A stretch of 64,000 bases of DNA from Verrucomicrobiaceae bacterium UBA1938 (GTDB taxonomy: Bacteria; Verrucomicrobiota; Verrucomicrobiia; Verrucomicrobiales; Verrucomicrobiaceae): positions 47,326 to 111,325 of the forward strand of contig DDFC01000030.1 of assembly GCA_002336895.1 (NCBI GenBank), given 5' to 3'. The position numbers were made by a program, and so were the translations under genes. Under the pieces are notes generated by a model that saw nothing but the letters and a program-made list of their open reading frames with translations, was not told the origin of the DNA and made no database searches. Positions 2,062 through 55,577 of this stretch are shown here, piece by piece; within the stretch, counting starts at the first letter, position 1, and each line of letters opens with the position of its first letter.

Positions 2062-2106
2062 GAACCTCTGCGAACGAAGCCCGCAGCGCCATTCTTCCGC
2101 CCGAGA

Positions 2107-3585
2107 TCAGGGAATGGGATTCTGTAAAGAGAGCCCGTAGCTCTTTTCCCACCAGGCCACGCGCTCGGCATCGCTGGGCTGGCCTTTTTTCACGCGGCTC
2201 TTCCAGATGCGCTCGTATTCGAGGCGCTTGGCCCGCTGGATGGCGCTCAGCGGCGGCTCCGTGGGCGGGTCTCCCTGCGCACCACGGTCCGGGCTGGAGT
2301 TGATCCAGGTGTCCATGGCACTGCGCATGGCGGCCATGCGATCCGCCACTTTGGGTTCTTTGGCCAGGTTGTGCAGCGACTGCGGGTCGGCCTTGAGGTC
2401 GTAGTATTCCAGCGCCTCACGTCGTGGCGTCAGCCATGCAGCCTGCTGCTCATTGAGCTTTCCCTCCTTGTCCATCACGCGTAGCAGCGGCATGCCGGGG
2501 TAGCTGTACTCTTTGTATCCTGACCAGTTCAGGTGCGAACGCGAGGGCTGAAAGTTGCGCACAAAGAGCGCGTCCGGCTCGATCACCGCTCGGATGCGGT
2601 CCATCGCATCGCCACAGCGGTCACGTGCGGCAAAGAGCCTGCTGCGCTCAGGGAATTCCCGCCCGAGGATCGCCTTCCCCTCCATCCAAGGAGGAATCGG
2701 CAGACTCGCAAGCTGAAGCATGGACGGCGCGAGATCGATGAGGCTCACCAGCCGCTCTTCCACACTGCCTGCGGCCACTCCTGGCCCGCGCATGATCAGC
2801 GGCACATGCAGCCCCTCCGCATTCAGCCACTGCTTGCCCCACGGCATGGGGCGGCCGTGATCGGCAAAAAACATGACAATGGTGTTGTCCAGCACTCCCT
2901 CGGCTTTGAGCTGATCCAGGATGACACCCACCCGCTGATCCACGACTTCCACACTGCGCTGATACGCATACCAGTCACGGCGTACCAGCGGATGATCGGG
3001 GTAGTTCGGCGGGATCTGGATGGCCTTCAGCTTCGCTTCATCATACTCCTCAGGGATTGGAAACGGCCGGTGCGGCTCGGTGATCTGAAACTGCGCAAAA
3101 AAAGGCTGCCCCGGCGTGCGCTTCCGCCAGTCATTGCCATCATACATCTTCGCCGGATCATGGGCAAAGTTGTAGTGCGTCTTGGCCTTGGTCACCGGGC
3201 GTCCGTTGCGCACTGTGCCGGGCGCCGCCGCGTTGGTGACAAACCAGCCCGCTTCGCGCAGCATGCCAGGCAGGTGCTGGTAGGGCGCGGGCAGCGGCTG
3301 CGGATTCTCCGTGTCATGCGGATGCAGCCCCGTCGTGGTTTGATAGCACCCGAGGATGAAGGCCGAACGCGAGGCGCTGCACACCGGCGCCGTGGCATAG
3401 GCCCGTGTGTAGCGCCGCCCCTCTGCCACCAGCCGGTCCAGATGCGGCGTGCTCACCTCCTTCAGGCCGTAGGCTCCAGTGTCCGGTGACATGTCATCGG
3501 CAATGATCCACACAAAATTCGGCGTTGCTGCGGCAGCCGCAGTGTGGAGCGTCAGGAGGACAAGGCTGGTCAGTACAAACTTCAT
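2107..3585 (-). CDS. Sulfatase family protein
   Basis: PNFVWIIADD, CSASR motif, ADHG, YDLKADP. Confidence 0.9.
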   Translation of the reverse strand: MKFVLTSLVLLTLHTAAAAATPNFVWIIADDMSPDTGAYGLKEVSTPHLDRLVAEGRRYTRAYATAPVCSASRSAFILGCYQTTTGLHPHDTENPQPLPAPYQHLPGMLREAGWFVTNAAAPGTVRNGRPVTKAKTHYNFAHDPAKMYDGNDWRKRTPGQPFFAQFQITEPHRPFPIPEEYDEAKLKAIQIPPNYPDHPLVRRDWYAYQRSVEVVDQRVGVILDQLKAEGVLDNTIVMFFADHGRPMPWGKQWLNAEGLHVPLIMRGPGVAAGSVEERLVSLIDLAPSMLQLASLPIPPWMEGKAILGREFPERSRLFAARDRCGDAMDRIRAVIEPDALFVRNFQPSRSHLNWSGYKEYSYPGMPLLRVMDKEGKLNEQQAAWLTPRREALEYYDLKADPQSLHNLAKEPKVADRMAAMRSAMDTWINSSPDRGAQGDPPTEPPLSAIQRAKRLEYERIWKSRVKKGQPSDAERVAWWEKSYGLSLQNPIP

Positions 3586-3633
3586 GCTCTGAAGGGAACG
3601 CGAAGCAGCCAGATTTGTGTCAGCGAGTTGAAC

Positions 3634-52667: not shown

Positions 52668-52680
52668 CTCCTCTGCCGAG

Positions 52681-55527
52681 ATGACCGAACGCGACTACCT
52701 GCGCCACCTGAACAAGAGCGCGCAGAAATTTTTCCCGCCTGAGGACAAGCTGCCACGCGGGCGCACCGAGACGCTGCGCCAGGCCAAACGCTTCCTCAAA
52801 ATCAAGGAGCAGCGCATCAAGCAGCGGCACCGCACCGGCAGCTTCAGCGGCACGGAGATCTGCCGCATGCGCTCGGACATGATCGACCTCCTCGTGCGCA
52901 CCCTGTGGGATGAGAGCGTGGCCGCCCTGCCTGCCGAGGCGCGGGCCAAGCTCAATGTCAGCGTGATCGCCCACGGCGGCTACGGGCGGCGGGTGATGAG
53001 CCCTGGCAGCGACGTGGACCTGACCTTCATGTTTCCCGGAAACAGCGGCAAGGTCTCCAATGAAGTGGTGCAGCTCATCCGCGACTACCTGCTCTACTTT
53101 TACGACCTGAAGCTCAAAGTGGGCCACGGCTCACGCTCCGTGGGCGAGTGCATCAAGCTGGCCAACGAAAACATGGAGACGAAGACCGCGCTGATGGAGG
53201 CGCGGCTGGTCACCGGCCAGAAAGCTGCCTTTGAGGAGTTCCGCTCCCGCTTTGACAAGGAATGCATGGACGGCCAGGAGGCCGACTTTCTGAAACTGCG
53301 GCAGATCGACCTGAACACCCGCCACACGAAGTACGAGAACACCCCCTTCGTCCAGGAGCCGCATGTCAAGAACGGCTGCGGCGGCCTGCGCGACTACCAG
53401 AACCTGATCTGGATGACCTATGCGCGCCACCGCACGCTGAACCCGAAGGATCTGGTGCCCCTGGGCCTCATCTCCAAGAAAGGCTGGAAGGAGGTGGAAC
53501 AAGGCTACGACTTCATCCTGCGTGTGCGCAATGAGATGCACTACACGGAAAAGCGTGCCGAGGACCTGCTGACGCTGCGCCTCCAGGGCCCCGTGGCCAC
53601 CAATCTGGGCTACCGCCACAAGCGCATCCTCCGCCGCATCGAGGCGCTGATGCACGAGTACTACACCGCCACGCGGGACATCCTACAGCGCAGCAACGAG
53701 GTGATGGACCGCTTTCACCTCCAGGCGCTGGAGACCAGCAGCAAGAGCAAGCTCATGGGCTTCATGGCACGCCGCAAGGCGGAGAAGCAGCAGGAGAGCT
53801 TTGACGGCTTCCAGCGCAAGCACGAGCGCGTGTACGCAGACGGCCCCTCCATCTTCAAGGACGATCCAGAGCGCCTGATGCGCCTCTTTCTCCACACGCA
53901 GAAGCGTCACCTGCGCCTGAGCCCTGACCTCTTCCAGCTCATCCAGGACAACTTCCGCCTCGTGGACAGCAGCTTCCGCTACAGCAAGACCAACCGCGAG
54001 ACCTTTGAGACCATCCTCTCCAACAAAGGGGATGCCGCACGCACGCTGCGGCAGATGCACCGCGTGGGCTTCCTGGGCAGGTACATGCCGGAGTTTGGCG
54101 CGCTCACCAACCTGGTGCAGCATGAGTTCTTCCACCTCTACACCGCAGACGAGCACACCTTGCGCACACTCGACAAGCTCGATGAACTCAGCGACCCCAA
54201 CCTGAAAGGCGCGGAGCTTTTCCAGCAGCTCTTCCACGACCTGCAGCAGCCCTACGTACTCTACCTCGCCCTGCTGCTGCATGATGCCGGCCGCGCCGCC
54301 AACAAGAAGACGCACAGCGACGAAAGCACCACGCTGGCTGCCGCCGTCTCCCGCCGCCTGCAGGTCAAGGGGGAGCGCCGCCGCCTGCTGCTCTTCCTGG
54401 TGGACAATCATCTGCTGATGTACCGCACCGCCACCACCAAGAGCCTGGACGAGCCGCAGGTGATCGAGGAATTCGTCAACATCGTGCGCACCAAGGAGAA
54501 CCTGGACACGCTGCTGCTCATGACCTACGCGGACTCCAAGGGCACCAGCGACAAGAGCTGGTCCGGCTACAAGGAGGCCTCCATCCGCCAGCTCTACCAC
54601 AGCGCGGTGCGCTTCATGAATGCTCCCGCAGACTTCATGCGCAATGTGCAGGTGCCGCTGGCAGATCTGAAAAAGCAGGTGCTGCGACTGCTGGGCTCCG
54701 GCTACGAGGCGGAGGTGGACGCGCACTTCCGCCACATGCCGCCCTCGTACTTCAATTTCCGCGAGGCAGACCTCATTGCCACACATCTGCGCCAGTTCCG
54801 ACTGTTCTTTGAGCAGCTCATCCGTGAAGAGGCCGCCGCCGGGCTGCTGCCCGTCATGACCTGGGTGGACCATGTGGACCAGGGCTACAGCGAGCTCACC
54901 GTCGTCTGCTGGGACCGCCACCTGCTCCTGGCGCGCATCTCCGGCGCCCTCGCAGCGGAGAGCATCAACATTCTCAGCGCAGACCTCTACCAGCGTGCCG
55001 ACCACCTCGTGCTGGACACCTTCCGCATCTGCAACACGAACTTTGCCGCCGTTACCACCAAGAGCGCGCGCAACCGCGTGGAGGAGTCTGTGCGCAAGGC
55101 CTTCAGCGGCCGCACCTTTGATTTCAGCGAGGCCATCGCCCAGAAGCTGGGCAAGTCCGCCACCATGCTCGATGCCATCGGCGATGAGATCCCGCAGCGC
55201 GTTTACGTGAACAACAACCTCTCCCCGGACCATACCGTGCTGGAGCTGCAGCTGGTGGACCGCCTGGCCCTCCTCTACGATCTTTTCATGGCCATCGGCC
55301 GCCTCGGGCACAACGTCACGCACGCCCGCATCAGCACGGAAAAGGGCGTGGCCATTGACGCCATCTATGTGCAGGACGTAAAGAGCCAGAAGATCACCGA
55401 CCGTGATCAGCTCGACGAGCTTTCCGATGCGGTGAGGGTGGCAGCCGGACTGCCTCCAACGCCGCGCCCCAAGCCTGAGCCCAAGCCTGCCGCAAAGCCT
55501 GAGGTGAAGCCCCAGGCCAAAGCCTGA
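52681..55527 (+). CDS. glnD: [Protein-PII] uridylyltransferase
   Basis: GGYGR...PGSDVDL NTase, VK...GGLRD, HD domain, two ACT domains (DR..LL). Confidence 0.93.
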   Translation: MTERDYLRHLNKSAQKFFPPEDKLPRGRTETLRQAKRFLKIKEQRIKQRHRTGSFSGTEICRMRSDMIDLLVRTLWDESVAALPAEARAKLNVSVIAHGGYGRRVMSPGSDVDLTFMFPGNSGKVSNEVVQLIRDYLLYFYDLKLKVGHGSRSVGECIKLANENMETKTALMEARLVTGQKAAFEEFRSRFDKECMDGQEADFLKLRQIDLNTRHTKYENTPFVQEPHVKNGCGGLRDYQNLIWMTYARHRTLNPKDLVPLGLISKKGWKEVEQGYDFILRVRNEMHYTEKRAEDLLTLRLQGPVATNLGYRHKRILRRIEALMHEYYTATRDILQRSNEVMDRFHLQALETSSKSKLMGFMARRKAEKQQESFDGFQRKHERVYADGPSIFKDDPERLMRLFLHTQKRHLRLSPDLFQLIQDNFRLVDSSFRYSKTNRETFETILSNKGDAARTLRQMHRVGFLGRYMPEFGALTNLVQHEFFHLYTADEHTLRTLDKLDELSDPNLKGAELFQQLFHDLQQPYVLYLALLLHDAGRAANKKTHSDESTTLAAAVSRRLQVKGERRRLLLFLVDNHLLMYRTATTKSLDEPQVIEEFVNIVRTKENLDTLLLMTYADSKGTSDKSWSGYKEASIRQLYHSAVRFMNAPADFMRNVQVPLADLKKQVLRLLGSGYEAEVDAHFRHMPPSYFNFREADLIATHLRQFRLFFEQLIREEAAAGLLPVMTWVDHVDQGYSELTVVCWDRHLLLARISGALAAESINILSADLYQRADHLVLDTFRICNTNFAAVTTKSARNRVEESVRKAFSGRTFDFSEAIAQKLGKSATMLDAIGDEIPQRVYVNNNLSPDHTVLELQLVDRLALLYDLFMAIGRLGHNVTHARISTEKGVAIDAIYVQDVKSQKITDRDQLDELSDAVRVAAGLPPTPRPKPEPKPAAKPEVKPQAKA

Positions 55528-55577
55528 CTTGATCTGCTGATACATTCCGCCTGCTGCATCGTTCGGAGAGCGCTCAC

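Follow-up and report, generated by a model that had tools for sequence, protein, structure and literature searches.

A CGTT-containing, putatively ECF-type promoter motif abutting the start codons of sulfatase and other exported-protein genes in a Verrucomicrobiaceae genome

Introduction

How the genes of a large sulfatase repertoire are switched on is the question raised by a 64,000-nt stretch of the genome of Verrucomicrobiaceae bacterium UBA1938 (contig DDFC01000030.1, C31:47326-111325, hereafter the window), in which eight genes carry the tetranucleotide CGTT a few nucleotides before their start codons, together with a second short block at a near-constant distance upstream of it. The genome (6.87 Mb, 61% G+C, 43 contigs) is a metagenome-assembled genome from a wastewater metagenome, and the window also holds DUF1501 and FGE genes and many sulfatase genes. 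Its MetE protein is most similar to those of Luteolibacter and Opitutaceae MAGs, in line with membership of the Verrucomicrobiota. Sulfatases and other enzymes of glycan degradation are encoded in very large numbers by Verrucomicrobia and their relatives. In Bacteroidota, pairs of extracytoplasmic function (ECF) sigma factors and anti-sigma factors control polysaccharide utilisation loci (PULs), with each pair encoded beside its locus; to our knowledge, Verrucomicrobia, unlike Bacteroidota, lack obvious utilisation loci that contain local regulators. Our literature searches returned no published sulfatase promoter or ECF regulon from verrucomicrobia or planctomycetes, nor any account of how such genes are switched on.

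The two blocks belong to a motif class that is real, statistically robust, and evolutionarily conserved within the genus. We consider it probable that this motif represents an ECF-type promoter set directly against start codons, which would drive a regulon of sulfatases and other secreted proteins from near-leaderless transcripts, with the promoter role, the ECF nature of the sigma factor, the point at which transcripts begin, and the length of their leaders all inferred from sequence.

Results

An earlier, sequence-only reading of the window had listed eight CGTT sites, each 8–14 nt before an ATG or GTG and each accompanied by a G placed 21 nt upstream of the C, and all eight are present, with the C at positions 2076, 3600, and 6111 on the minus strand, and 11438, 14081, 16118, 21629, and 55560 on the plus strand. 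The genes behind them encode six sulfatases (PF00884), one right-handed beta-helix protein, and one 3-keto-disaccharide hydrolase, with a signal peptide at the N-terminus of all eight proteins. By the criterion of that reading, ~0.3 sites would be expected for the ~40 genes of the window, as calculated from base composition, compared with the eight seen; scored with the position weight matrix described below, 0.05 start-proximal matches of at least 12 bits are expected and seven are seen.

On the minus strand, the site before the sulfatase gene 589-2061 (2059-2099; PF00884) comprises the −35-like block CGGAAGAA (2099-2092), CGTT (2076-2073), and the ATG (2061-2059), scores 14.3 bits with 15 nt from C to ATG, and lies in a 45-nt gap (2062-2106) behind an upstream co-directional sulfatase gene. 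That gene (2107-3585; PF00884) is itself preceded by a site at 3583-3623 (CTGACACA 3623-3616, CGTT 3600-3597, ATG 3585-3583; 14.4 bits, C-to-ATG 15 nt) in a gap of 48 nt (3586-3633). The two gaps of less than 50 nt between co-directional genes reported previously are therefore correct, and a third, of 50 nt (55528-55577), separates a glnD-like gene (52681-55527) from the plus-strand sulfatase gene 55578-56924, the site of which (55537-55580) combines CTGATACA (55537-55544), CGTT (55560-55563), and ATG 55578 (15.4 bits, C-to-ATG 18 nt). The site before the sulfatase gene 4510-6099 (minus strand, 6097-6141), which has a GTG start, had been called weak and is so: CGTT at 6111-6108 is paired with the poor −35 block ACGCGAGA (10.3 bits), and an alternative pairing of the good −35 block CTGAAACA (6141-6134) with a −10 block other than CGTT reaches 12.8 bits, leaving this site ambiguous.

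The best site of the window lies on the plus strand before the sulfatase gene 11454-13277 (11415-11456; CTGAAAAC 11415-11422, CGTT 11438-11441, ATG 11454; 15.9 bits, C-to-ATG 16 nt). It is followed on this strand by the sites of the exported beta-helix protein gene 14097-15386 (14058-14099; TGGATAAT 14058-14065, CGTT 14081-14084, ATG 14097; 12.8 bits, C-to-ATG 16 nt), the sulfatase gene 16130-17692 (16095-16132; CCGAAGGA 16095-16102, CGTT 16118-16121, ATG 16130; 12.5 bits, C-to-ATG 12 nt), and the exported 3-keto-disaccharide hydrolase gene 21644-22339 (21606-21646; TTGAGAGA 21606-21613, CGTT 21629-21632, ATG 21644; 13.7 bits, C-to-ATG 15 nt). For the sulfatase at 16118, the true start is ATG 16130, where the signal peptide begins, and not the start of the longer open reading frame at 16058. 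A ninth site, previously described as off by one at 62188, is rejected as a member: before the esterase gene 61316-62164 (minus strand, 62165-62210), CGTT lies 20 nt from the ATG, the upstream block GTAAAC is poor and out of register, and the score falls below 10 bits.

Genome-wide, 4378 genes were called with a codon-periodic Markov model, and a two-block position weight matrix was refined on sulfatase upstream regions, with sites counted from 12 bits upwards; the controls were these upstream regions after dinucleotide shuffling, the antisense orientation, and a Markov-simulated genome. The matrix is low in information, so that only position-aware tests are informative and single sites cannot be called confidently. 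Both the enrichment over background and the fixed spacing expected from the sequence-only reading extend to the whole genome. A start-adjacent site of at least 12 bits precedes 80 genes, compared with 5–15 in the shuffles, and a test independent of the gene caller, using 1370 ATGs followed by signal-peptide-like sequence, finds a site at 62 starts against 1.8 expected. The C of CGTT forms a sharp peak, usually 12–16 nt before the ATG (range 11–21), with up to 17 matches of at least 12 bits per position against ~1 in antisense, and the −35-like block lies 21–22 nt before the C. After background subtraction, the class comprises roughly 70–110 genes, nearly all of them for enzymes exported by the Sec or Tat route, esterases among them.

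The full motif reads c-T/G-G-A-A-A-n-A, 12–14 nt, nnCGTTnn, or cTGAAA..N16/17..CGTT in short form; in 38 of the 42 training sites, the 8-nt blocks are 13 or 14 nt apart, equivalent to 16 or 17 nt between TGAAAn and CGTT. Two asymmetric blocks with a near-fixed spacer are as expected of ECF promoters, with G peaking at −22/−21 from the C. The −10 block shows the CGT core of such promoters (C 97%, G 90%, T 94%, followed by T at 81%), and the −35 block has A-A conserved in the expected columns (A 60–67%) and is degenerate beyond T-G-A. The earlier description of the upstream element as a G, usually GA, exactly 21 nt before the C thus holds in part: the G is present, as the G of TGAAA, but the block is fuller than described and, across the genome, G at −22 is about as frequent as at −21. 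Among all called genes, CGTT peaks at −16/−15 from the ATG, and an unseeded alignment on CGTT recovers G at −22/−21 followed by A-A-A(-A), often with a T in front. With CGTT at −19 to −12 as the sole anchor, signal-peptide genes show G at −22 in 56% (p=1e-8) and A at −19 in 52% (p=4e-12); CGTT farther upstream of starts has no accompanying upstream block. Both CGTT and CGTA are enriched at −19 to −12 with a bias towards signal peptides, and CGTC is without enrichment.

The targets are predominantly exported, with signal peptides in 85% of the 80 compared with 32% genome-wide (odds ratio 12.8). Sulfatases account for 27 of them, and roughly half of the signal-peptide sulfatases bear the motif. 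The remaining 53 belong to many families, including BD-FAE and other alpha/beta hydrolases, GFO/IDH/MocA oxidoreductases with twin-arginine signals, DUF1501, PSD1/PSCyt2, 3-keto-disaccharide hydrolases, PQQ propellers, GDSL lipases, and beta-helix proteins. A pattern-only test, which needs no matrix and sidesteps the circularity of one trained on sulfatases, places CGTT at −19 to −12 in 248 genes, 58% of which have signal peptides (p=6e-19) and which include 34 of 75 sulfatases; CGTT at −60 to −40 shows no signal-peptide bias. Targets start with ATG in 95–98% of cases, compared with 86% genome-wide, and for 47 of the 80, the preceding gene runs in the same direction at a median distance of 51 nt, which, as with the gaps of 45, 48, and 50 nt in the window, leaves just room for a promoter-sized element. 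Formylglycine-generating enzyme (FGE) is needed for the maturation of Cys-type sulfatases. The FGE gene of the window (48258-49034, minus strand), encoding an FGE-sulfatase domain and a signal peptide, lacks the CGTT motif upstream and apparently does not belong to the sulfatase-containing class.

Twelve sister genomes of the same genus were used for comparison, and in eight of them we found a sulfatase homologue preceded by a suitably positioned motif that scores 12 bits or more. Orthologues of the sulfatase at 55578 in four of five sister genomes (G006, G001, G005, and G003; 74–90% protein identity) keep TGATACA or a variant together with CGTT at the same distance, with the spacer rewritten, and the motif is absent from the orthologue in G008. 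A second orthologue set has GTGAAACA...CGTT in G000, G001, G006, and G007, and TTGAAACA in G004, again with diverged spacers. Particular −35 variants are kept across orthologues, with TGATACA in three genomes, GTGAAACA in four, and CTGCCAGA in three. In a 400-kb sample of G004, 5 of 75 signal-peptide starts have the motif (0.12 expected), as do 4 of 13 in a 60-kb sample of G012. In two other families of the order, none of 83 (G017) or 40 (G016) signal-peptide starts has it, with no CGTT enrichment in the larger of these two samples. On present sampling, the motif class is a trait of this genus.

These data bear on whether the motif might be a chance or compositional artefact, or upstream DNA inherited through duplication of sulfatase genes. 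Such an origin would be in keeping with the little information in the matrix, a genome-wide match total equal to the Markov null, and the training of the matrix on sulfatase upstream regions, but we regard it as extremely improbable: enrichment is strong against each of the position, orientation, and shuffle controls, the motif first emerged from all genes without training, 53 of the 80 targets belong to families other than the sulfatases, sites have no conserved sequence in common beyond the two blocks, and the spacers of orthologues diverge whilst the blocks stay.

The start-codon context of this genome provides a second point of reference. The absence of a Shine-Dalgarno signal, noted previously for the sites of the window, is correct genome-wide, with G depleted upstream of starts at −13 to −5. 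A sigma70-like class also abuts start codons, with cTTGC/TTGAC peaking at −37 and TAnnnT at −17 to −11 from the ATG; the TAnnnT maximum at −12 is the position expected of leaderless genes, and implies many leaderless genes of housekeeping type. This TTG-N17-TAnnnT class has 35% signal peptides and contains no sulfatases. The CGTT motif fills the same slots, with the T of TGAAA at ~−37 and the C of CGTT at ~−15. As previously proposed, rpmH (ATG 62335) and tRNA-Cys (39855) use TTGACA promoters, namely TTGACA-N17-TAGTGT (62226-62254) and TTGACA-N17-TAACAT (39804-39832), both with ordinary leaders, that of rpmH being ~70 nt.

Recognition by the housekeeping sigma factor, or by a group-2-like factor of 298 aa, through a TTGACA-like −35 (cTGAAA) and an unusual −10, with no ECF factor involved, would account for several of these features. 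The upstream block has T-G-A-.-A in common with TTGACA, a 17-nt spacer puts CGTTnn exactly in the slot of the −10 hexamer, the distance to the ATG equals that of the TTG...TAnnnT class, and a second non-ECF sigma factor is encoded at C22:73271-74167. Primary sigma factors, however, need A at −11 and T at −7 of the −10 hexamer (TAnnnT), and the CGTTnn in this slot provides neither. Furthermore, the first T of TTG is not conserved (C 42%, T 19% in this column), the sharp bias towards exported proteins is absent from the TAnnnT class, and rpmH and tRNA-Cys use canonical TTGACA-N17-TAnnnT promoters. We therefore consider a housekeeping or group-2 factor unlikely.

The blocks could also act as a transcription-factor operator, or as a signal in the short 5' leader RNA for translation or membrane targeting of mRNAs for exported proteins, with the promoter located elsewhere. 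The fixed distance to the start codon, the missing Shine-Dalgarno signal, and the strong tie to signal-peptide genes would suit such an element. Its likelihood is nonetheless very small: the blocks are asymmetric, with no palindromic or direct-repeat structure, the spacing of 16/17 nt and the −37/−15 positions coincide with the sigma70-like −35/−10 slots, gaps of 45–50 nt leave no space for another promoter, and, if transcription begins downstream of CGTT, the blocks lie outside the RNA.

Several further features of the start-codon context were observed. The base at −1 is C for ~65% of start codons genome-wide and for 88% of those of motif targets (for example, window 11450-11456), and the 12 nt upstream of starts are C-rich and G-poor. 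As a mark of the transcript start, C at −1 was rejected, since it occurs at 62–74% in every gene class, operon-internal genes included; it looks like a Kozak-like translation context, part of which could stem from start calling. The idea that the TGA of the upstream block is the stop codon of the neighbouring gene was likewise ruled out by coordinates. C/A-rich words unrelated to CGTT are position-enriched at −25 to −10 (AACCCA at −19, TAACCC at −22, CAACCC at −24, and CCCAAC at −12; z = 11–15), and may represent a further promoter class, or a signal that acts in the leader or enhances translation.

A search for candidate sigma factors yields 40 Sigma70_r2 matches in the genome, ~36 of which are short ECF-like proteins. 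One of the few pairs of sigma gene and target is found at G000:C43:144944-146978, where an ECF sigma gene on the minus strand is divergent from a motif-bearing gene (14.4 bits) for a membrane or exported protein, ~450–530 bp apart, and this pair is a possible lead to the cognate sigma factor. The ECF sigma factor gene of the window (8939-9445, plus strand), 2 kb upstream of the 11438 site, is a candidate by position only, its upstream match CAGACAAA-N13-TGCGTCCT (9.6 bits, 38 nt from the ATG) being at chance level. Directly downstream, the gene 9794-11344 (plus strand) encodes a protein of 516 aa with one N-terminal membrane helix and a large outside domain, which matches no Pfam or NCBIfam family and lacks a cytoplasmic anti-sigma domain.

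Elsewhere in the window, the region 40000-47000 has a lower G+C content (0.50–0.55) and holds two tRNA-Cys genes, an antitoxin-like gene, an ABC-3C CTD7-domain protein gene (42861-44153), and a DUF3732/AAA protein gene (44617-46602). It looks like an acquired defence island, and gives many chance matrix matches because it is A+T-richer. The region 57141-61281 (plus strand) encodes a BlaI-like repressor (57141-57527), followed by a 1202-aa protein in which a BlaR1 M56 peptidase is fused to a penicillin-binding transpeptidase domain.

Discussion

The proposal that a single alternative sigma factor lies behind the secreted degradative enzymes of the window stands in part. The enrichment, spacing, exported-protein bias, block conservation, and ECF register all speak for a distinct, alternative-sigma promoter class, of which one or several factors may be the readers, but none of the ~36 ECF genes carries the motif upstream, and the C of the AAC typical of ECF −35 elements is not conserved. 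In the mechanism that we favour, the motif would be a −35/−10 pair read by an alternative ECF-type sigma factor, either one or a few with overlapping specificity, and the promoter would lie directly against the start codon. The motif of SigT in Caulobacter begins at −34 of mapped transcript starts (PMC4287350), which would place the C of CGTT at ~−13 and, in this genome, the transcript start 0–6 nt before the AUG. The mRNAs would then be translated as leaderless or near-leaderless, which fits this genome because the Shine-Dalgarno signal is absent. In tandem sulfatase arrays, each gene would have its own copy of the promoter in a gap of ~45–50 nt, barely longer than the promoter itself.

Several observations weigh against this mechanism. 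In the 200 nt upstream of 31 called sigma genes (of 40 loci), the best matches score 9.6–11.3 bits at 38–113 nt from the ATG, equal to the number expected by chance, giving no sign of autoregulation, and 8 of the 40 sigma genes lie within 5 kb of targets compared with 6.3 expected, which is no enrichment. The AAC that is near-invariant in ECF −35 elements (PMC5758882, PMC7083833) is read at some sites only (GTGAAACA, CTGAAAAC), with the column after A-A at A.24, C.28, G.31, and T.17 (A.65 and C.03 in the other register), and the upstream block matches the housekeeping TTGACA at four of six positions. Additionally, distances to the start codon vary over 11–21 nt, more than would be expected from a single fixed point of transcript initiation, and matches of at least 12 bits in the whole genome number 1637 compared with 1549 in the Markov simulation, no excess for a matrix of such low information. 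Lastly, searches for RNA runs with the sulfatase cluster of the window and one sister genome returned DNA metagenomes and two metatranscriptomes holding 6% of the words, one of which yielded five short fragments from relatives, with no 5' ends.

The same promoter class could instead be read by several paralogous ECF sigma factors, with −35 variants (TGAAAC, TGCAAG, TGATAC, GGAAGA, TGCCAG) and the base after CGT tuning which of them acts, as with sigma W, X, M, and V of B. subtilis. The number of ECF genes, the degeneracy of the −35 block after T-G-A, and the retention of particular −35 variants across orthologues are consistent with this, and overlapping recognition is documented for ECF factors (PMC5758882). 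However, no sigma gene has a matching autoregulatory copy that would define sub-classes, targets are not beside sigma genes, and a comparison by eye shows no correspondence between −35 variants and enzyme families. We hold such shared reading to be possible rather than probable.

Whilst the motif class itself is undescribed in the literature found, the type of system is well known. EcfG/SigT-type promoters of the Alphaproteobacteria read GGAAC-N16-CGTT (PMC7083833), and share with the motif two asymmetric blocks, a CGTT −10, a G 21 nt before the C, A-A in the same columns, and a regulon of tens of transcription units. They differ in that the T/G-G-A-A-A of the motif is without the C that is conserved in AAC, sigma genes are not preceded by a copy here, the targets here are exported degradative enzymes and not general stress proteins, the phylum is another, and the promoter abuts the start codon. 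The promoters of B. subtilis sigma W, X, M, and V (tgaAAC...CGTA/CGTC, spacers of 14–17 nt; PMC5758882) resemble the motif in a TGAAAC-like −35, a −10 with a CGT core, the spacer range, extracytoplasmic targets, and possible sharing between ECF factors. The fourth −10 base here is T (81%) and AAC is not conserved; the B. subtilis factors, in contrast to the present system, are autoregulated and responsive to envelope stress, with mRNA leaders that have Shine-Dalgarno sites.

The layout of the class, with a short, near-fixed distance from −10 to start, a preference for ATG, and no Shine-Dalgarno signal, is that of the leaderless mRNAs of Actinobacteria, Deinococcus, and Akkermansia; in Akkermansia muciniphila, of the same phylum, ~10% of transcript starts are leaderless (PMC4782308). 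Published leaderless cases mainly have −10 boxes of housekeeping type, whereas the class here would be a second, ECF-like one tied to the secretome, its leader length being derived from the SigT register. The putative link of an ECF-type factor to glycan-degrading enzymes, including sulfatases, recalls PUL control in Bacteroidota; unlike there, the targets are dispersed over the genome and not near sigma genes.

A shared promoter class would give a concrete, testable handle on the control of sulfatases and other exported enzymes. It predicts a trans-acting sigma factor among the ~36 candidates, a defined regulon, and transcript starts a few bases from the start codon. The motif also marks true start codons, as with 16130 over 16058, which is a gain for annotation, and the genome would have two promoter classes with a common, putatively leaderless layout. 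More tentatively, a single, non-autoregulated, genus-restricted ECF sigma factor may switch on a dispersed regulon of ~100 exported-enzyme genes, encoding sulfatases, esterases, and oxidoreductases, from promoters fused to start codons, such that the start of transcription also sets the start of translation, with spacers of 45–50 nt between tandem genes that hold nothing but a promoter. Such an arrangement could be the principle by which the control of glycan degradation is organised in Verrucomicrobia, where PUL-type loci are lacking.

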